64,000 nucleotides of DNA, from IMG/VR virus record IMGVR_UViG_3300020195_000020, positions 10,146 to 74,145 of that record; one strand, 5' to 3'. A program made the position numbers and the translations under genes. Source of the stretch: a virus. The notes under the pieces were generated by a model that was not told the DNA's origin, made no database searches, and saw only the letters and a list, made by a program, of their open reading frames with translations. Shown one piece after another: positions 467 through 64,000 of the stretch. How positions within the stretch are numbered: the first letter of the stretch is position 1; the number at the start of each line of letters is the position of its first letter.

Positions 467-1456
467 ATGGGAGCTCCCACTACCGCTCTCGGCACTCTCC
501 GACCCGAAATCGCGGCCAGCTTCGAAGAGTTTGGCCTGGAAGAAGATCGCCGCAATTTCATCGGGACGCGTGTCGCCCCGGTGACCGAGGTGATGGAATC
601 GGGCGGCGCCTTTGGCCGCATCCCGATCGAGCAACTGCTGGAAAACCCGGACGTCGCGCGGGCGCCGGGAACCGGCTACCACCGCGGCAAGTGGAAGTTC
701 GAGCCGGACACCTACGTGACCCAGGAGTATGGTCATGAGGAGCCGGTCGACCGCAACACCGCGAAGAAGTATCGCAACTACTTCGACGCCGAACTGATCG
801 CCAGCAAGCGGGCGATGGACATCGTGTTGCGAGCCGCCGAGGTTCGCTGGGCCGCGAAGATCTTCAACACGACGACTTGGAACGGCGCTTCGTTGACCAC
901 GAACATTTCCGTGCCCTGGTCGACCATTGCGTCGGCTGTGCCGATCGCCGACGTGGAAGCGGCCGTCAACAAGGTCTACGACAACAGCGGCGTTTGGCCC
1001 AACACCCTGATCTTGACCAAGAAGGCGTTCCGGTATCTGCGTCGCTGCGACCAGATCATCAGCCTGATCAAGTATTCGGGCAACCACAACCCGACCGCGT
1101 CCGGTATCACGGCGGATGTGCTGGCCGAGGTCTTCGACCTCGAGCAAGTGATCGTCGCCGGCGGCACCAAGAACACGGCGGGCAAGGGTCCCGGCATCGC
1201 GGCCACTCCGGCCTCGCTCTGGGATGCCACCAAGGCCATGGTCTGCTACGTCGCCCCCTCGGGCGAAATGTCGGACCTCTCTCGGCCGACGCTGGCCCGC
1301 ACGTTCCATTGGGACGAGGACGGCAGCTTGATCGGTGGCGCGTTCGAGAGCTACGAGGACCCGGCGATCCGCGGTCAATGGTATCGCTGCCGCCACCAGG
1401 TGGGCGAGAAGATCATGTACAAGGAGCTTGGCCACCTGCTGACCAACGTGACCTGA
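467..1456 (+). CDS. Major capsid protein (HK97 fold, lambda gpE-like)
   Basis: 329 aa; pattern FIGTRVAPV...RAPG...Y...EYGHEEPVD typical of this capsid group; strong SD; heads the morphogenesis block. Confidence 0.7.
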   Translation: MGAPTTALGTLRPEIAASFEEFGLEEDRRNFIGTRVAPVTEVMESGGAFGRIPIEQLLENPDVARAPGTGYHRGKWKFEPDTYVTQEYGHEEPVDRNTAKKYRNYFDAELIASKRAMDIVLRAAEVRWAAKIFNTTTWNGASLTTNISVPWSTIASAVPIADVEAAVNKVYDNSGVWPNTLILTKKAFRYLRRCDQIISLIKYSGNHNPTASGITADVLAEVFDLEQVIVAGGTKNTAGKGPGIAATPASLWDATKAMVCYVAPSGEMSDLSRPTLARTFHWDEDGSLIGGAFESYEDPAIRGQWYRCRHQVGEKIMYKELGHLLTNVT

Positions 1457-18231: not shown

Positions 18232-19224
18232 TCAACGACTGAGGCCGGCTTTTCGGCCGAACCAGCGGCGAACCAGTGCGATCGTGCGGCGTGTAAGTCC
18301 AATTCGTGGCAATTCTTGGGTGACTGCTGGCAAGCCTGGCCTGGGAAGTATTTTTGCCGCCGACTGCTGTCCGCAGATGGTGGGGTCGAGGTACTTTCGG
18401 GTCGTCTTGCCGTCCTCGTGTCCGAGCATCAATTGAGGATCGAGTCCCAGCCGCTTGCCGTGCGTTGCGGCGCTCTTGCGGAGACAGTGAAAGCGGAATT
18501 GGCGACTGCTCGGCAGGCCCGCGCGGCGCTGCACTTCGGCGTAGCGATAGTAGATGTGGCTCTCGGAAAATGGCCAAGGAAAGACTTCGTCGCCCTTGGA
18601 GAAGGTCCGCAGCCGCCGCAGTAGCGCCACCGTCTCGGCATGCAGCTCGTAGGTCATGTCTTTGCGTTTGCCTTTGCGGAATTCGGCCGGCACCCGCACC
18701 CAGCCGCCGTCCAGGTCGAACCATTCCCATCGCGATTTACGCAGCGGAGAAATCCGCTCGGCGGTGTCCCAGCCGAGGTTGTGCAAAGTCTCCCACCAGA
18801 GGCCCGCCGGCACGGGACCAATGTAGCCTGGCGTGGCGCGGCAGGCGGCAAACAGCGACTCGAGTTGCGGCATGGTCCAGGCCCGTGGATCGCGATCGGG
18901 CTGCACTTCCGGGTCGACGTCGGGCCATTCCTGCAGAAAGCCTTTGCGGCAGGCAAATCGCCAGATGGCCAGGAGCTGCGATCGCTCCTTGTTGGCGCTG
19001 GATGGGCTCAGGCCGCGGCCCATCATCCACGCCATGAGCCGCGAGACGTTGTCGTCGGTTAGATCGACGAGCAATGCGTCGCGCTGGAGAAAGGTGCTGA
19101 AGTTTCGCACCGAGAACGCGTACAGCCGGCGAGTGTTGTCGGCGCGGCCGCGCAACTTCAAGGGGATGTACTGGTCCTCAAAAAACGACTTTAACGACTG
19201 TCCAGGACAAATCATTGCGTTCAC
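18232..19224 (-). CDS. int: Tyrosine recombinase/phage integrase
   Basis: SAM-like N-domain; catalytic R (TAERISPL), K (RKGKR), HxxR (FHCLRKS), LGH and Y (TTRKYL). Confidence 0.9.
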   Translation of the reverse strand: MNAMICPGQSLKSFFEDQYIPLKLRGRADNTRRLYAFSVRNFSTFLQRDALLVDLTDDNVSRLMAWMMGRGLSPSSANKERSQLLAIWRFACRKGFLQEWPDVDPEVQPDRDPRAWTMPQLESLFAACRATPGYIGPVPAGLWWETLHNLGWDTAERISPLRKSRWEWFDLDGGWVRVPAEFRKGKRKDMTYELHAETVALLRRLRTFSKGDEVFPWPFSESHIYYRYAEVQRRAGLPSSRQFRFHCLRKSAATHGKRLGLDPQLMLGHEDGKTTRKYLDPTICGQQSAAKILPRPGLPAVTQELPRIGLTRRTIALVRRWFGRKAGLSR

Positions 19225-55627: not shown

Positions 55628-56527
55628 CATGCGCGTCGATCTGATGGCGCCGGCACCATGCCGGCCTCGGCACACGGTCGGCAGAGGAAGCACTCGCCTG
55701 GCCACAGCTCGCCGAGGTACTGGGGATGCACGGCCGAGCGGCCGCAGCGGTCGCAGGGCACGTCGATCCGTTGGCCTTGCATGTCGTTCACGAAATCCAG
55801 ACCGGCTTGGCCGTCGCTGCGGCTGAACATCATGAATGTCTCATCTTTGACCAACGCCCTGATCGGCATGAACAGCTCACCACTGTTAAGCATCGGCCGG
55901 CTCACTCTCTGGCGTTTGATCGAAGGGCATGGACTCGGCCGTCGACCGACTCTTCGATCAGGAAATCTCCGCTCGCATGCTCCGCACACAATGGGATGCG
56001 CAGGAAAAACTGCATCGTTCCAAGGCGATGGGCGAGACTGATCGGAGTGTCCCTGCCGTTGACTCTTACCGTGGCCGGTGACGCCTGGCACCCATCGACG
56101 CAGCACTTATCGAGTGGTCGGCTCATGCGGGTTCCTTGTCATGAACGCGCTCCGCTTTCCAGGTCGCCAGGTCCTCGCCACTCCGTTGCCAGCGTTTCAG
56201 ATGGCGGCCGCAGAGTCCGTTGGCCACGTGCGGCGCTCCGCACACCTCACAGACCCTGGGCTCGGTCGGGTTGTTCAGGCGACGCGTCTCGGCCGCCTTG
56301 CGGCCCCGCTGGCGTAGCGCCCCCTTGGTCATGCCCGGCGCCCGCCGCGTGGTCTTGATGCCGGCGGCGGCTCGGGCCTGGCGATTCACGGCCGACACGG
56401 CCGCGGCCTTCCGGCAGATCTCTCGACGCAGCTCGGGCGCGCGGGCCCGACGAAAGGCCTCGATCGCTTCCTCGGCAGCCGCCACGTCGGCGTCGGTCAG
56501 GTTATCCAGATCAACCAGGTTGGACAC
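55627..56527 (-). CDS. Three small Cys/Zn-finger genes (55869-55627, 56126-55902, 56527-56123)
   Basis: CDRC..CFLCRPC; CCVDGC..LCAEH; CEVC..LCGRH; SD AGGAG before GTG 56527. Confidence 0.55.
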
Positions 56528-57020
56528 GATTAGCACTCCTGCGGGTGTCGTTAGGTATCTTAGACAGCCGCGGCAAACTCGGCCACACGAAACCGCCGCA
56601 GACGGGCGGGCCAGAGTAGAAATCGCCGGGCCCGGGGGAGCTGCCCCGAAAGGCAGCACGGGTGACTAGTCCGCGCCGGGACCGGCTGGAGCTTCCCCAC
56701 GGCCAGCAATGCCGGCCGCGGGGTCACGTTGGACAAGGATAGCACGCCCGGCGGCCGCCCGGAAACGATCGCCGGCTGAAAAATTCTGACGTGCCAGGTC
56801 GATCCGTTAGGCGCGCGGGGCAAATCGTCCCCGCCGAACCTGTCGCCGCCGACGGCGCGCCGCCAGATTGCGACACAAGGCTAACAGGGGCCCGCCGTTA
56901 CGCTCTGGCCGGTCCAAAACAGGTGCGAATTATGCACGATCGTATGCACGGGCCAGAGTCAGGCTCTCACTCGGGTGAACCGTAGTGTTCGCGCTTTGTT
57001 CGCGCGCGAACACTTGACAC

Positions 57021-59896
57021 TCAGGCGGCCCGCTGCCAGTTGGCCGCCGCCTGGTCTGGCACTCCCAGCGCTCGCATCACGCGCTCGTGCTCCCGACAAT
57101 AGGCGCTGGAGTCTCCCTGGTTCCAGGTAAAGCGGCCGGCCTTGCGCATACGACGATTGGCAGCATCGATGGCGGCCGAGCGGGCCAGGTGGTAACAGTC
57201 GTGATAGGTGTTCGGCAGGTTGGGGCGCATCGCTAGATTCTCCTCGGGTTGGGGACTTAGGCTGCCGCGCAGCCGGAAAGTATGCTTTTATGACAAAGGC
57301 CTATAAACGGCTCACGCGGCCGCGGACTTCCAGTCGTTGACCGGGTCGGTGGCCGCCAGCTCGCGGGCCGCTTCCATTTCTGCGAAGTAGGCCATCATGC
57401 TGGCCCGCAGCGCCTCGCCTTCGGCCAGGTCGGCCCCGATCGTGGCCTTCTCCGCGGCGGTTGGCTCGAACGCGAGCAGCTCTCGCAGGTTGGCCGCGAA
57501 ATAGTCGACCATGCACTGCAAGCCGTCGTCAGCGTGATTGTTCCAGGGCCCGAAATTCCACTTGCCGGACGATCGATTACTCTGGCCGCCGGTTGCCAGG
57601 GTCCCGCCGCGGTTCGACGCGAACCGGGTAGCAATCCAGTTGCCATAGACCGAGACGCGAAGCGGTCCCGCCGGCGTGGCCAGCTCGTAGCAGCGACACG
57701 CGCCAGACTCTTCGCGGAGCCAGACGGCGCCAACGCGGGCCAGCACCTTGCCGGCTTCGACCACGAAATGACAGCGTGACAGGGCAACCGCCTTGCTCGC
57801 TCCCTTGCTCTTCACCAGGGCGCCGCCTTGCGCATAGTCGGGCTGGGCATAGTACGAGGTGAACACCTCCACCAGGTCGGCGCGCTGGCAGGGCAAACAG
57901 GCCGCCAGATCCTGGCCGCCGATTGTGATGGTGGCCCGCTCGTCGCGGGCGCGAATGGTCTCGTTGCAACAAATGCACTTCATGGTCAGCTCCTTGGGCG
58001 CAGTCACTCGCCAGGTTAAAGGGTGGACTTAGGCTCGATCGACCAGCAGGCGGATCGCCCGCATACGGTGGCCGGCGTACCATTCGGGATAGTCGGTGCC
58101 GTGCTCGATGGCCGCCTCGCAATCAGCCGCGATCGACGCGAGCAGATATTTGGCGGGATTCTTTTCATACATGCCCCAGAGTGCGAGCACAGTAGATTCG
58201 TAGTCGCGTGGGCCGTCGTACGTTTTCATGGTCAGCTCCAGTGGCGCAGTCACGCGCCAGAATAGGGGAAGGGAATCAGAACACGACGCACTAGTAGCCT
58301 TCGACGTCGGACAGCGGCTCGACCGCCCGCCAGTCCCGGCGGTTGTGCTCGCGCTTCTCCTGCATGCGAATAGTGCGGGCCATGACCTTGCGGGAATTGA
58401 ACTCCATAAACTCGACGTCCCAGTCGACCGCGCGGCGGGCCGTCCGGTCAGGGTGCGGCGGCTTGTACTCGATCGACCTGCCAAAACTCATCGTGATGCG
58501 CTTCATGGCTTGCTCCTGGGTTAGTTGTTAGAAACTTCAATGTCCATCGTGATGGCCAGTTCCCAGTCGAGATCCATCGTGCCCTCGCGAGTCTCCATTG
58601 AGTCCGACGCGTCAGCCTGGCCGATCGCAATCAGCTTCTCGATCGTGCGGACGACGTCCTCATGCGTTGCGTCCTCGACCTCTGGCGAAGTAACACGTAG
58701 CGTCACGACCTGGTCGCCGGCCGGCTCGCGCGGCTCGCCGTCGGTAGTGGGCCGCAGGCCGTGCTTGTTGAGCATCCAGGCGGCTTGATCGCAGACATCC
58801 GAACCGCTCCAGTCTTTCTCGTCGCTATAGCTATTGCCGTCGAGATAGAGGGAATCTTGTAGGTCGCGAACGATCTCGGCCAGTTTGGCGTGCGAGAGTG
58901 TGGCGGGGTCTTTCATGGTCAGCTCCTTGGGCGGTCAGCCCATCTTGGGAAAACAGGCGAAGGTAAAAAATTCTGACGTTGGCGCGCGGTCCGTTAGGCG
59001 CGCGACCGAAACTGTTGCTGCCGCCCGATCGCCTGGTGCGGGCCCACTAGAGCGGTGCGGCCGATTGACTACAGGGCCAGGTCAGGGCGCCAGCTATTCA
59101 ATGAGCTTGGCTTCCCACTCGTGCCCATCCTGGCACGTGAGCGTGACGCGGCCGGCATCGTCCACGATCGGCGCGGCGGATTCCCAGTCGACGTCCGACG
59201 ATTGCCAGGCGTTGTACTCGTATTCGCCCCCGCCCTCGTGGGCGAGGTAGTATTGAGCCTGCACGGTCTCAAGGATCCGCTCCGGCCGCTTGCCGCAGCT
59301 CGGACAGGTTGAACGCTTAAACTTCATGGCTTGTACTCCTGGCGCAGTCGGGCGCCGGCTTGTGGTGGAAAGATCGAACGGACACGACGCAAACGGCCGC
59401 CAGGTCATGCGCCCAGCAGCTCGGTTACCCGATTGGCCACGGCCATTGCATTCTCAAGGCCGCGCCAGAGCTTGGCGGAAAACAGCTCGGCATATTTCCC
59501 GTCCGGCTTGAGCAGCGCGACGCGCAGATAGTGCGCCTCATTGCTGCGGCAGGTGGCGAAGACAGCGACCTGGCCCCGCATGTTGAACCAGATCGCATCG
59601 GCCGCGGCCCGATTATCCCACGCGAGCGGGCAGCCGATCGACTCGTCAATCAGACCCTCCCGCTTGAGCACCCGATTCAGCCGGGCCAGGACCTGGCGAA
59701 TCGTCATGTCTTCCCGATACCACGCGGCCCGCAGCGCTCGGCGAGGGTCTTTCTTCTCCGCCCAGAGCCCGCCCGGCTTGCGGCCGTCGGCGTAAATCTC
59801 ATCGCGGGCCTTGCTCGCCTTGAACGCGCAGGCGAACCGCCACGGCTTGCCCGTGGGCTTCTTGGCATCGGGATGGAAACAAAAGGTAGAACGCAT
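57021..59896 (-). CDS. Array of small early-type genes (57230-57021, 57983-57312, 58229-58029, 58506-58291, 58916-58521, 59327-59094, 59896-59405)
   Basis: Each has a GGAG SD; five start directly behind the GAC-loop hairpin leader; no recognisable family. Confidence 0.65.
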
Positions 59897-60002
59897 GATT
59901 AGCTCCTTTGGCGCAGTCACGCGCCAGACTGAGGGAAGCGAAACCAACCGGCCGCCGCGGGTGCGAACCGCGGTCACTACGCATGATCGGCCGGGCATCG
60001 AC

Positions 60003-61397
60003 TCAGGCGGCCCGTTGCAGGGTGACCAAGCACGTGTTCACGTTCGTGCCGGACTCGGCGAACGTGCCGGCGGGCAGATCCCAAAACCGACCGCCCATCC
60101 GCTTGACCAGCTCCCGAAACGCGACGGCTTTAGCGTTCTCGCGGAACTCGACGCCGGCGGACATAACGGCCACCAGCTTGCCACCTGGCGCCAGGAACTT
60201 GACCGCGTGGGCGACGTGGTCAATATCCCGCTGGAGATCAAACGGCGGATTCATATAGACACGATCGAACAGGCCCAGCGAATCGACCGACTCGTCCAGG
60301 AAATCGGCCGTGCGAGTTTGCAGACCCTTGGCCCGCAGTGTGGCCGCCCGCTGGAGATTCACTTCGACGCAAGTAATATCGGCCAGCTTGTAGCGTTCGC
60401 GGACGGCGCAAGCTATGGCCCCCTCGCCGGCGCTCGGCTCCAGGACCGTAAACGGCTCGTCCCAATATCGGGGCGATGCGTTCTCCATCATCCGGCCGAC
60501 GACATCATCGGGCGTCGGGTAAAACGCGCCATTCTTGGCCAGGGTGCGATTCGGATTCGCCAGGGGGTCGCCCTTGCCGGCCACTTCATAGGCCGCGCCG
60601 ATGACGTCGCCGTAATACTCGGCCAGCAGCTTGTTACACTCCCGGACCAGGTCGTCACGCTTGAACCAGATATGCAGATTCCCGTTCGCAAAGATGCGGA
60701 TCCGGAAAAACTCATGCTCGACCACGGCCGGCCGCGACCGGCGCGCGGCGGTTTGCACCCCGGCCACGATGCCGGACTCTCGCTCCGGCAGCTCCTTGCC
60801 GGCCAGACGGCAAAACACCCGCTCGACGTCGCGGAGCGTATCATCCTGCCGGCGGTGGTGGTTCCAATACCCGCCCGCCTCAATGGCGTGGTTCAGCACG
60901 ATTCGTGAGCCGATCTTGAAACCATCGTGCGACCGAAACCGGCGATCCAACGACGAAAACGCCTCGGCAATCCCGCGCTGAAACAGCATATCGGCATCGG
61001 CCAGCAGACCGACCAGAGTAGCGCGGGCCGTGCTGGCGACCAATTCCGGCGGATCCTTTTGCAGTTGGCCGCGGAATTGTTCGCGGGCCTTGCGGTCCAT
61101 CAGCTTCTCGAACCCATGATCTTCGATCAGATGCTGCCAGGCGATGGCGTCAACGTGCTTCTTGACCTTCTCCATAAACCGCTCGGGCTCGCGCTGGTAA
61201 GAACACATGGCCGAGCAAATATCCGAAGTCGGCTTGTTCTCGCCGGGGACCAGATCCATCGCATCGTGCAGCAGGTCGTAGGCCTCGCGGAAACGGGACA
61301 GCGCGGCGTTGCGCTGGCTTTCGGCCCGCTCGATCACGTTCGACTGGATCAAAGCGGCGGCGGCGGGGCGGTCTAGTTCGGCAGTAATAATGCTCAT
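60003..61397 (-). CDS. DUF4942-like domain fused to an N6-adenine DNA methyltransferase
   Basis: FRSHDGFKIGSRIV; FFRIRIFANGNLHIWF; FYPTP; VLEPSAGEG; MNPPF; FAESGTNV. Confidence 0.88.
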   Translation of the reverse strand: MSIITAELDRPAAAALIQSNVIERAESQRNAALSRFREAYDLLHDAMDLVPGENKPTSDICSAMCSYQREPERFMEKVKKHVDAIAWQHLIEDHGFEKLMDRKAREQFRGQLQKDPPELVASTARATLVGLLADADMLFQRGIAEAFSSLDRRFRSHDGFKIGSRIVLNHAIEAGGYWNHHRRQDDTLRDVERVFCRLAGKELPERESGIVAGVQTAARRSRPAVVEHEFFRIRIFANGNLHIWFKRDDLVRECNKLLAEYYGDVIGAAYEVAGKGDPLANPNRTLAKNGAFYPTPDDVVGRMMENASPRYWDEPFTVLEPSAGEGAIACAVRERYKLADITCVEVNLQRAATLRAKGLQTRTADFLDESVDSLGLFDRVYMNPPFDLQRDIDHVAHAVKFLAPGGKLVAVMSAGVEFRENAKAVAFRELVKRMGGRFWDLPAGTFAESGTNVNTCLVTLQRAA

Positions 61398-61478
61398 GGT
61401 CAGCTCCTTGGCACAGTCACGCGCCAGATTGTAGGGAAAGAACGAAACGACGACGACGACGACAGCGACGCGCCAGAG

Positions 61479-61865
61479 TCAGGCGGCGCGGGGAACCTGC
61501 GGGTTCAGTTGATACAGCAGCTTGCGAACCTCGGCGGCCAGCTCGTAGACCTGGCGGGCCTCGGGGTGGTCCGCGTGCCGGGCGTGAAACTCCATATTGA
61601 ACTGCGACCAGTCCCACGCATTGTGAGAACTGACGGACGGAACCTGCCCAGGAGGTTGCCACACCATCACGACCAGCTCTTCAGAGTGTGAGCCCTGACC
61701 GAGCACGATTGCCCGGTAATACCCGGCGCTAAAATCGCCGGCCGGCTGATTGCAGTACAGCAGCCGCAGCGCACGTTGGGCAATGATCCGATCTTGCTCG
61801 ACCTCGCGGCAGGCATTCTCGGCCGCTTCACGTGACGGGAAACGGTATTTGCGACGCTTGGCCAT
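61479..61865 (-). CDS. Hypothetical protein
   Basis: 128 aa; SD GAGGAG. Confidence 0.6.
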   Translation of the reverse strand: MAKRRKYRFPSREAAENACREVEQDRIIAQRALRLLYCNQPAGDFSAGYYRAIVLGQGSHSEELVVMVWQPPGQVPSVSSHNAWDWSQFNMEFHARHADHPEARQVYELAAEVRKLLYQLNPQVPRAA

Positions 61866-62381
61866 TGCTCTATCTCCTCGCTGAATAGGGTTTGAAACCA
61901 GATCCCGAAATAATCAAAAAGTCAAAAATTTCCGGCGCTTTTCACGTTAATCCCCCGGCGGCGCCGCGCCGGCCTGCCGCCGGCCGGGACCCCCGCCCGC
62001 GGTGTCTCCCGCCCGCGACACGTGCACGCGCGGGCGCGCGCGCTCCCCCGCGGATTCGCGCGGCGGGCGGGCCCGCGCGACGTCCAAACAAATCCGGATC
62101 CCCACGCGGCCCACGCGTCGCACCTGGCGACGTGCACGCGGCCGCGGTTTCGCTCCGTCACAAGATCGGGCCCCGCGGCCGATCGCCGGCGGGCCCACGC
62201 GTCACGGGCCAGCACGGGCCCGCAGACGGGCCCGCGTCATGGCGGGCCCCACGAATCAAGAATCGGCCAGACCGGGCCAGCACGGGCCCGCGTCACGTTC
62301 AAGCGGCCGGACGATGGGCCAGCACCTGGCGGGCCCATCGTCGGGCCGCCCTGGCGACGTTCGCCAGGACAGCTCACGACG

Positions 62382-62642
62382 TCAAGCGGCGGGCCGCGGC
62401 GGGCCCACGGTCACCCGATGGCCGGACGATTGCAGCTCGGCCAGCACGCGGGCCCCGTCGACAGCGGACAGCATGCAAAACACCTGGCGACCGCGGCCGG
62501 CGGGCACGGCCCACAATCGGGCGCCAGAGAACAGCGACAAGCGGCGGGCGGACTCCCCGCGGGCCAGATACTGGCCGCGAATCTTCTCCAGACCGATCGG
62601 CCGGCGGGCCGCGGGTTCGCACCGCGTCACGAGACCTAACAT
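62382..62642 (-). CDS. Small hypothetical protein
   Basis: ATG lies at the exact end of the 127-bp repeated leader that also serves the 63876 gene. Confidence 0.45.
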   Translation of the reverse strand: MLGLVTRCEPAARRPIGLEKIRGQYLARGESARRLSLFSGARLWAVPAGRGRQVFCMLSAVDGARVLAELQSSGHRVTVGPPRPAA

Positions 62643-62766
62643 GGTAGACAGCTCCCCGGGCAGTCACGCCCGATAGTAGGACCTGGCGGGCCGTGCGACG
62701 TGCACGGCTTGCGCCCGATCGTGGGCCAGCACAATGGCGGGCCCACGATCGGGCGCCCCCTGGCGA
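62640..62766. repeat. 127-bp exact direct repeat, copy 1
   Basis: Identical to 63874-64000 (offset 1234 bp). Confidence 0.95.
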
Positions 62767-62793
62767 CGTCGCCAGGGGACACCCGCGGCCATG

Positions 62794-63876
62794 CTAGGCC
62801 GCGTCACGGCCCACGATGGCGCCCGTGGTCGCATGCTCAAAGATCAACCCCGGCTCGGCCGCGGGCTCGGACACCTCGACCGCGGCGGGCTCGGCCACGA
62901 TCGGCGGCGCCAGCTCGGCCAGCTTTGCCCCCTTGGTCCGGCGGGTAAACTCCGCCGCGCCCGGATACTTGAACATGCCGCGCAGATCGGCCACCAGCTT
63001 GGCGCCGTCGTATCGGCCGAACGTGTCCGCATCCGCGCAATAGACCGTCACGGCCCGGCAATCATCCGCGACCGCTTCGACCACGGCCGCGGGTTCGGCC
63101 AGCTCCAATCGGGCCAGCTCCTGGCGGACACGATCGGCCATCGTGGGATTCTGCCGCATATCGTGCCGCCAGAATCTGGCCGCGCCGTCGGGCCCATTGT
63201 CGGCCGCCAGCGGCATTAGCACCGATGAACAGATCCGCCCGTCCGGGTGCGCGACCTGCAACGTGCACGCCCGCTCCGGATCTTTGATGAACAGCGTCAC
63301 GCCGCGCGAATCGTCGCTAGTGGCCAGCACGCGCGCGACGTCGCACAACTCCGCCAGGAAACGCGGATCCAACGTGATGGCGGTCCCGTCTGCGACGTCC
63401 GAATAGGCGAAAACGTCGCGCCATTTGGGAAAGCGCCCCATGCCCCGGGCATCGGCAATTGAGAATTCGGCCGCGCCATCGGTCGCACGAATCGGCAAGC
63501 GGCGCTCAATAGGCGCATCTTCCGGCGCCCCCTTGGCCGCGGGGATAATCGGGCCATTTTCGTCGATGAACACAAACCCCAGCTCCGGCCGGCGCTTGAT
63601 CGCCTTACGGTCCAACTTCCACGCGCAGACCTGGCGGACCGCTTCGGCGGAAACCAGCACCGAAAACTCCGGCGAGGGGACCACGCCCGCGGGCGCCAGG
63701 GGGTGCGCTTCCGGCTCGGTCCACTTGTACGCCGTCAGCCGGCGGCCATCGGTGGCGACCGCGACCGCGGATCCGTCGGCGCACCGCTCCAGCAGAATAC
63801 AACCCAGCGCGTATCGGCTGGACGATTGGTCGCAGACCTTGGTCAATTGCTTGAACGTCTCAATAGAAATTAGCAT
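62794..63876 (-). CDS. DNA polymerase III beta-clamp-like protein (partial clamp fold plus C-terminal extension)
   Basis: SSRYALGCILLE; AVATDGRRL; GRFPKWRDVF; ITLDPRFLAEL; SVLMPL. Confidence 0.75.
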   Translation of the reverse strand: MLISIETFKQLTKVCDQSSSRYALGCILLERCADGSAVAVATDGRRLTAYKWTEPEAHPLAPAGVVPSPEFSVLVSAEAVRQVCAWKLDRKAIKRRPELGFVFIDENGPIIPAAKGAPEDAPIERRLPIRATDGAAEFSIADARGMGRFPKWRDVFAYSDVADGTAITLDPRFLAELCDVARVLATSDDSRGVTLFIKDPERACTLQVAHPDGRICSSVLMPLAADNGPDGAARFWRHDMRQNPTMADRVRQELARLELAEPAAVVEAVADDCRAVTVYCADADTFGRYDGAKLVADLRGMFKYPGAAEFTRRTKGAKLAELAPPIVAEPAAVEVSEPAAEPGLIFEHATTGAIVGRDAA

Positions 63877-64000
63877 GGTAGACAGCTCCCCGGGCAGTCA
63901 CGCCCGATAGTAGGACCTGGCGGGCCGTGCGACGTGCACGGCTTGCGCCCGATCGTGGGCCAGCACAATGGCGGGCCCACGATCGGGCGCCCCCTGGCGA
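63874..64000. repeat. 127-bp exact direct repeat, copy 2 (runs off the window end)
   Basis: Identical to 62640-62766. Confidence 0.95.

Follow-up and report, generated by a model that had tools for sequence, protein, structure and literature searches.

A repeated, hairpin-rich spacer in the leftward gene block of a temperate phage contig: anatomy and possible role as an intercistronic RNA element

Why would a phage place one and the same folded sequence between unrelated genes? The question is raised by the end of a 64,000-nt stretch of DNA (hereafter the window), positions 10146-74145 of the 74,145-bp IMG/VR virus contig IMGVR_UViG_3300020195_000020, in which window end and contig end coincide. 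Here, in a block of leftward (- strand) genes, near-identical spacers connect the stop codon of one gene with the start codon of the next. The original prediction, made from the sequence alone, took these for gene-plus-spacer units that can be added, excised or shuffled, reminiscent in architecture of integron attC arrays but with no canonical attC boxes evident. The observation itself was confirmed and extended in our analysis, and the cassette/integron interpretation was partly supported. With moderate confidence, we read the repeat as a composite intercistronic element serving RNA processing, stability and translation in the first leftward, probably immediate-early, operon of this phage.

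Copies and anatomy of the spacer

The exact repeat from which the original prediction started is real: 62640-62766 is identical to 63874-64000 and, with three more bases included, the match covers 130 nt at 99% identity with a spacing of 1234. Its 127 bp, however, only reflect where the contig stops. Read over the junction of the contig ends, the exact repeat, which we call R, is 141 bp long (window 62640-62780), and similarity beyond R runs on to both stop codons, for ~160 bp in total with two differences. It is true, as had been pointed out, that identity ends at the start codon; this has no special meaning, because the flanking genes are unrelated. All three of the copies that had been described are genuine, and inspection of the contig beyond position 64000, which had been suggested as a check, brought the total to four, the additional copy C lying outside the window, ~1.15 kb past the contig junction (Table 1). 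Of copy B, the window contains the module that precedes the clamp-like gene, then the long hairpin at 63945-63990 and, from the palindrome, the left arm.

A covariance model built on the palindrome plus the long hairpin has exactly four matches in the whole genome, one per gap in four successive gaps. All four copies have the same orientation and lie in a single co-directional gene block, the order on the transcribed strand being the 73-aa gene, unit C, the DUF932 gene, unit B, the clamp-like gene, unit A, the 86-aa gene and half-unit D. The modular gene-plus-spacer layout stands, with a structured spacer spanning each stop codon to the next ATG. Perfect hairpins of at least 10 bp are found at nine places in the 74-kb genome, seven of them within these units, and a unit folds much better than shuffled sequence both as RNA (z = -7.4) and as DNA (z = -6.9).

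On the transcribed strand, a unit reads, in order, stop codon, 12-15 nt, palindromic hairpin, 17(+2)-bp hairpin, 7-bp hairpin, GCCCGCCAGGT box, 5-bp hairpin with a GTGACT loop, GGGGAGCT, 7 nt and ATG; in the minimum-energy fold, the three hairpins are closed by a 4-bp helix. Both the 22-bp palindrome and the 17-bp stem (62711-62727 / 62740-62756) with its 12-nt loop were found as originally described. The 17-bp and 10-bp stems are perfect, with neither bulges nor extrahelical bases. Copy D, too, had been recognised correctly as a diverged copy: 17 of 18 stem positions pair, three pairs are altered on both arms (GATCGT/ACGATC to GACGAT/ATCGTC) and the loop is retained (CGCCAGGTGCT). Its palindrome keeps the arms around a centre of 5 nt, compared with 4 nt in the other copies.

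Two modules make up the unit. The post-gene module, with the palindromic and the 17-19-bp hairpin, is found after four genes, and the pre-gene module (small hairpin, GCCCGCCAGGT box, GTGACT-loop hairpin, GGAGCT, ATG) precedes three. The two are separable, since the hairpin next to the Shine-Dalgarno (SD) sequence stands alone before six genes (Table 1) and copy D is the post-gene half alone. The box GGCCCGCCAGGT has six occurrences, all on the transcribed strand of this block.

Taken over the full set, the SD-proximal hairpin family is present before nine leftward genes and no rightward (+ strand) gene, a distribution that suggests a role in expression. The short module is made up of a pyrimidine-rich tract, a GGCGC-GTGACT-GCGCC hairpin and GGAGCT-GACC-ATG. 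When eight SD-hairpin sites are aligned, pairing holds in 94% of the cells; one pair is compensatory, and a single G-U can form on the transcribed strand but not on the other. Note that the longest open reading frames (ORFs) at 59405-59998, 59094-59408 and 57312-58007 probably begin too early: internal ATGs that follow a hairpin-GGAGCT module (59896, 59327 and 57983) give proteins of 163, 77 and 223 aa, and a 66-aa gene starts at 58229.

Table 1. Positions of the spacer copies, their parts and the adjoining features (window coordinates unless marked as contig coordinates).
Feature	Position	Strand	Remarks
Copy A	62643..62793	-	Complete 151-nt spacer, clamp-like stop codon to 86-aa gene ATG
Copy B	63874..64000, continuing at contig 1-139 to the DUF932 stop codon	-	First 127 nt (+ strand) in the window
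Copy C	contig 1145-1289	-	94% identical with indels; between the 73-aa gene and the DUF932 gene
Copy D	62303..62368	-	Diverged, post-gene module only; covariance model 77.5 bits, E 2e-11
Palindrome (copy A)	62757..62778	-	22-bp perfect, CCCCTGGCGAC/GTCGCCAGGGG; first hairpin of the post-gene module
Long hairpin (copy A)	62711..62756	-	17-bp perfect stem plus 2 pairs within the loop; transcribed-strand loop CGCCAUUGUGCU
Third small hairpin (copy A)	62691..62707	-	CCGTGC-ACGTC-GCACGG (transcribed strand), then the GCCCGCCAGGT box
SD-proximal hairpin (copy A)	62640..62672	-	CGGGC GTGACT GCCCG, then the ribosome site GGGGAGCT, a 7-nt gap and the 86-aa gene ATG
Remainder of the 516-nt non-coding gap	61866..62302	-	GC-rich array of small GGGCCCG...GGCCC hairpins, RNA fold z -4.2
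Clamp-like gene, 360 aa	62794..63876	-	phrog_947 E 8e-6; relatives with PF00712/PF02767/PF02768, E 1e-10 to 1e-5
86-aa gene	62382..62642	-	No family match
Short pre-gene module alone, six genes	57981..61437	-	ATGs 61397, 59896, 59327, 58916, 58229, 57983

A reading at the RNA level

Where would a transcript carrying these units begin and end? The only sigma-70-like promoter that we found on the leftward strand (TTGACA-17-TAGGAT, contig 2218-2190, 10 of 12 matches) lies at the head of the block. A scan of window 56000-64000 returned none, and none was found in any unit; note that promoter and terminator scans use sigma-70-type consensus sequences and that the rules of the probable planctomycete host may differ. 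No U-tract follows the unit hairpins. Past copy D, ~400 nt are rich in hairpins and contain a terminator-like site (62279-62264), and an AT-rich promoter-like stretch within the 516-nt gap precedes the 128-aa gene that lies beyond. The first leftward transcription unit probably ends in the stretch listed in Table 1 as the remainder of this gap.

Three further features of the leftward start regions deserve mention. At the block head, three GATTGAC boxes are found in 125 bp (contig 2096-2220, locus L010, - strand), the first forming part of the TTGACA-17-TAGGAT site. The first two small leftward ORFs (contig 1863 and 1524, same locus, - strand) have a near-identical leader, CCCACAAACC(C)-N-AACGGAGATCCTGACCATG, and from this common leader it appears that stereotyped start regions are a general habit of the block. 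Finally, a second repeated element, GCGCCTAACGGA...GTCAGAATTTTT(T), is present in AT-rich gaps 5' of leftward genes at 58975, 56788 and 55571 (- strand), with a related stretch at 61933; it is a candidate promoter family separate from the GTGACT hairpin modules.

We propose the following scheme. The operon would start at the contig 2218-2190 promoter, run through two small ORFs and then through the series from the 73-aa to the 86-aa gene with its units, and close in half-unit D and the structured 400-nt stretch. Within each unit, the long perfect stem could be cut by an RNase III-type double-strand nuclease or, alternatively, could stop 3' exonucleases, the palindromic hairpin staying behind as a protective 3' end of the upstream cistron while the small hairpins would shield the 5' end of the downstream one. 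The pre-gene half (small hairpin, GCCCGCCAGGU box, GUGACU-loop hairpin, GGAGCU-N7-AUG) would provide a standard translation start and perhaps also the target of a common RNA-binding regulator. Any cassette-like behaviour would then be a by-product of homologous recombination between the repeats.

This reading is favoured because the units all point the same way and sit at fixed places with respect to the stop and start codons, because their 3' and 5' halves are separable, because pairing is kept under sequence change, and because the box is strand-specific. It is favoured further by the presence of one promoter at the head of the block and none in the units, by the missing U-tracts and by the strength of the fold compared with shuffled sequence (z -7.4, as above). 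Precedents are offered by the early region of phage T7 and by the start-site motifs of Cluster K mycobacteriophages, both treated below. The lengthening of the palindrome centre in copy D also fits, a change that is neutral for a hairpin loop and bad for a dimer-bound site.

Several points weigh on the other side. We infer the transcription unit and its limits, the cleavage and the action on RNA alike from the sequence. Perfect Watson-Crick stems fold equally well as DNA, on either strand, only one G-U favouring RNA, and the covariation is based on very few independent copies. The RNase III sites of phage T7 have internal loops, which the stems of these units lack. The loop-free 22-bp palindrome would also suit a dimeric DNA-binding protein, and its 16-bp core recurs in the DUF932 coding sequence. 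Lastly, -10-like TACTAT or TACAAT lies directly 5' of some SD hairpins and, since host signals may fall outside the consensus scans, each unit could have a promoter of its own.

Cassettes, operators, assembly effects and integrons

The last point leads to the first of the alternatives, which we judge unlikely: that the units are cassettes resembling the promoter-early stem-loop (PeSL) elements of T4-type phages, each with a terminator or attenuator hairpin and its own promoter, and that homologous recombination moves, deletes or circularises the genes between them. The layout (stop codon, stem-loop, SD, ATG) is the same and occurs in a non-structural early region, and a single gene is flanked by 141-bp direct repeats. 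Moreover, -10-like hexamers (TACTAT, GACTAT, TACAAT) lie 1-2 nt before several SD hairpins, so that transcripts starting there would carry a 5'-terminal hairpin. However, a sigma-70-like promoter was found in no unit. With A and B, which share one sequence, counted once, there are eight different units or short modules, of which only three have a decent -10 and none has a -35. The hairpins, as noted, are not followed by a U-tract, and four copies compare with ~50 PeSLs per T4-type genome.

Gene content bears on the same question. Phage proteins are found at 100% identity on about 5-8 contigs (JGI, Logan, ENA), and the ~6 assemblies that hold this phage all have the same genes with identical proteins, which may speak against shuffling, these being assemblies of one and the same phage and no diverged relatives having been found. 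In one JGI assembly, larger contigs hold the rest of the phage, and the clamp-like gene stands almost alone on a contig of 1205 bp, its protein there beginning at codon 6 with Leu. This might be taken for an excised unit, but it is also the product expected from an assembler in a fragmented assembly when both flanks are repeats. Distant relatives of the clamp-like gene have been counted in favour of gene exchange, too: on two metagenome contigs (L014 932-968 and L015 1554-1591), 80% identity extends from the clamp-like gene through an intergenic T-tract terminator hairpin, and the genes that follow are different and unrelated. This is a clean mosaic junction at an intergenic hairpin. Gene exchange at hairpins of this kind happens in the wider gene pool; it says nothing specific about the units studied here.

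The 141-bp direct repeats could, by ordinary homologous recombination, allow deletion or circularisation of the 1234-bp unit, whose gene is indeed beta-clamp-like, as the original prediction had it (Table 1). We think it very improbable that the spacers go further and mobilise single accessory genes, the 1234-bp clamp-like unit being partly a free or encapsidated mini-circle or variably present among virions. The assembly graph does not tell such a mini-circle apart from a single circle. If true, cassette behaviour would bring PeSL-type shuffling to a temperate phage, probably of a planctomycete host, with a junction module in which no promoter can be recognised.

A second alternative, which we hold to be improbable, places the function in the DNA: the palindrome, perhaps with the GCCCGCCAGGT box, would be an operator bound by a repressor or other dimeric protein in a stoperator-like manner, and the hairpins would be incidental. 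Such an operator would suit a temperate phage with an integrase, which must silence its early operon, and the 22-bp palindrome is perfect and loop-free. Its 16-bp core, CTGGCGACGTCGCCAG, has four occurrences, all within 2.4 kb, of which one (contig 558-573) falls in the DUF932 gene; a half-site is present upstream of the first ORF. The 12-bp palindrome GGCGACGTCGCC occurs seven times in the genome (window 10223, 10900, 51062 and 62762; contig 109, 560 and 1261), the four in the window comparing with 0.03 expected. However, all copies of the 12-bp sequence outside the spacers read GGC GAC GTC GCC in frame, that is Gly-Asp-Val-Ala in preferred codons, so that codon usage may explain them; the copy of the 16-bp core within the DUF932 gene is less easily explained in this way. 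Against an operator also speaks copy D, in which the arms are kept and the length of the centre is altered. Above all, an operator leaves unexplained the compensatory changes of the 17-bp hairpin, the fixed positions relative to stop and start codons and the strand-specific box.

Could the exact copies be an effect of assembly? IMG/VR classes the contig as having a direct terminal repeat (DTR): its first 113 bp equal its last 113 bp, and both lie wholly within the internal repeat. The contig ends with R[1-127] and starts with R[15-141], so that both ends stop exactly 127 nt into the 141-bp repeat, and the length of the DTR follows as 113 = 127 + 127 - 141. The JGI workflow uses metaSPAdes with k = 33, 55, 77, 99 and 127, and ends of this kind are the signature of k=127 de Bruijn graph edges; the apparent 127-bp repeat length is thus a truncation, and the 113-bp DTR arises because an internal 141-bp repeat is cut at k=127 on both ends. 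We had considered that 141 is itself a common k of MEGAHIT and rejected this, since the 127-nt geometry matches metaSPAdes instead. The original prediction had named an assembly artefact or a terminal genome repeat as what would overturn it. In part, this has come about: the second exact copy is the terminal overlap of the assembly, although this overlap is the arithmetic of an internal repeat and k, not a physical repeat at the genome ends. Consequently, a call of '100% complete, circular' that rests on an internal repeat longer than k leaves termini and circularity not established by the DTR, and the completeness and termini of the IMG/VR record should be treated with care.

The simplest reading of this geometry is a 74,032-bp circle carrying two copies of R. 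The same graph (e1-R-e2-R) fits one circle or two equally, and is also compatible with a 72.8-kb circle plus a 1234-bp circle, or with extra units between the contig ends. Bulge removal by the assembler could have erased small differences between the two copies of R. The near-identity of copies A and B would reflect gene conversion or recent recombination between spacers, and may have been exaggerated by the assembler. Nevertheless, it seems to us decidedly improbable that the exact copies, or the placement of the clamp-like unit, come from collapsed near-repeats or a wrong path, the true state being, for instance, a genome of 72.8 kb and a separate 1.2-kb element, or additional units between the contig ends, even when the 1205-bp contig with the clamp-like gene only is taken in its favour. 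That the repeat family as such is genuine is clear from copies C (94% identical, with indels) and D, both of which were assembled within unique sequence. In addition, the contig crosses copy A with unique sequence on both flanks, for which metaSPAdes would presumably need read-pair support. The exact 360-aa clamp-like protein is recorded on five contigs, the longest of them the 74-kb one, plus the 1205-bp JGI contig.

The integron analogy is hardly credible: although there is a hairpin-forming site after each gene, all in one orientation, as expected of attC-like single-strand sites for a tyrosine recombinase, and although phage-borne attC clusters exist (clusters of attC sites lacking integron integrases, CALIN; PMC9892861), it fails on boxes, stem shape and integrase type, attC being defined by inverse-core and core boxes that bound a 57-141-nt site, whereas no R''/R' pair (RYYYAAC...GTTRRRY, 50-160 nt apart) was found on either strand in any of the four units, the stems are perfect with no extrahelical bases, where attC has an imperfectly folded strand with such bases and an unpaired central spacer, the unit reaches as far as the following ATG, its last hairpin is also found at genes lacking the long one, and the sole tyrosine recombinase, ~44 kb away, is not of the IntI type (15.6 bits on the integron-integrase model TIGR02249, cut-off 265).

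The phage, its relatives and known systems

The clamp-like protein resembles DNA polymerase III beta clamps and phage processivity factors over its N-terminal ~230 aa; its last ~130 aa are matched by the closest relatives only (at most 92% of the query covered, 40% identity). The DUF932/TIGR03299 gene between units C and B encodes 334 aa, and beyond the 516-nt gap the 128-aa gene is followed by a DUF4942-methyltransferase gene. Those genes of the block that can be recognised (DUF932, clamp-like, orphan methyltransferase) belong to types known from early or anti-restriction regions; the small early proteins had no match in PADLOC or NCBIfam. The leftward block diverges from the terminase genes: rightward from contig 2706 run the terminase small and large subunits, the portal, the protease and the major head protein. 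The phage is tailed and, with a tyrosine integrase at window 18232-19224, temperate. If packaging begins beside the terminase genes, the leftward block would be packaged last and would enter the cell first. The host is probably a planctomycete, judging from the bacterial matches of the clamp-like protein, which are DnaN of Pirellulales and Thermoguttaceae. Among 37 proteins scanned, which do not exhaust the phage, there was no phage RNA polymerase or sigma factor for which the short modules might serve as promoters.

The phage has no close relative in IMG/VR, among cultured phages or in 185,579 species genomes. Its terminase large subunit has no relatives in IMG/VR and is <30% identical to those of cultured phages, and blastn against cultured phages gave no match. 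Searches with parts of the spacer yielded 0 matches in viral contigs for the SD-hairpin motif and 0 in metagenome contigs for the stem word. The top of the long hairpin, GGGCCCGCCANNTGCTGGCCC, had 2 chance single matches in viral contigs and 104 single matches in genome contigs, 0 of them with the extended stem. An origin as a miniature inverted-repeat transposable element or a host repetitive extragenic palindrome was rejected, there being no copies in the 185,579 species genomes. In Rfam no match reached the gathering score, and the search for tRNA and tmRNA found none. The sole phage found to have a relative of the DUF932 protein, at 33% identity (locus L009), has a different upstream motif: six copies of a 22-nt sequence, TCGATTGTTCGGnTTCCCAAAC, unrelated to the present one, are spread over L009 342-10347, mostly just before gene starts. 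The 80 metagenome loci of clamp-like relatives have no DUF932 gene, 86-aa gene or methyltransferase gene nearby, which has no bearing on the spacer.

How, then, does the spacer compare with repeated elements already described in phages? In the early polycistron of T7, RNase III cuts at five intercistronic hairpins (PMC4858673, which cites Dunn & Studier 1973 and 1983 for these sites). As in T7, there are hairpins between the cistrons of what would be one early transcript from a host-type promoter at the head, with a terminator region at the end, and the sites within the phage resemble each other. The layout here, with a promoter found at the head only and a terminator-like site after the last unit, describes an operon as read from the DNA. 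Cleavage has been shown in T7, at hairpins with internal loops, whereas here it is only proposed, for perfect stems flanked by two more hairpins, and the present phage is temperate and unrelated to T7.

The start-associated sequences (SAS) and extended SAS (ESAS) of Cluster K mycobacteriophages are found, always in the same orientation, where non-structural genes start, and a subset has a 17-bp inverted repeat directly upstream (PMC3203893). They share with the SD-hairpin module an asymmetric conserved motif that overlaps the SD 3-8 nt before the ATG, in one orientation and at non-structural genes only; the nine leftward genes that carry the module, with none on the + strand, show the same placement. 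The SAS/ESAS consensus GGGATAGGAGCCC is not matched by the consensus here, GGCGC-GTGACT-GCGCC-NN-GGAGCT. Departures from the ESAS consensus do not support RNA pairing, whereas those seen here do, and the inverted repeats here are a three-hairpin block that begins right after the upstream stop codon. The SD-hairpin module is thus an analogue of SAS/ESAS and not a member.

PeSL cassettes, for which deletion and circularisation between direct repeats have been shown (PMC2839356) and which number ~50 per T4-type genome (PMC2839356, PMC4122927), likewise occupy a region of early accessory genes, each unit extending from the upstream stop codon over a stem-loop as far as the SD and the start codon. 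Their direct repeats also flank single genes and can give deletions and mini-circles. In the present units, by contrast, neither a strong sigma-70-like promoter nor a U-tract terminator was detected, and there are only four copies. The stoperators of Cluster A phages, as far as they are described in PMC3203893, are also short motifs repeated along the transcribed early region of a temperate phage; these are asymmetric 13-bp repressor-bound sites, whereas the palindrome here is part of a larger folded unit.

Folded spacers that recur between early genes are coming to light in many uncultured phages. Being compact and cleanly split into 3' and 5' halves, the present one would offer a convenient test case for the punctuation and stabilisation of early transcripts in hosts about whose expression signals little is known. 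Functionally, its closest counterparts are the T7-type processing sites, and architecturally they are SAS/ESAS and PeSLs; by sequence, or by the defining features tested, the unit belongs to none of the three. In kind, however, such a spacer is not new, and it takes its place as a variant of the known repeated intercistronic elements.

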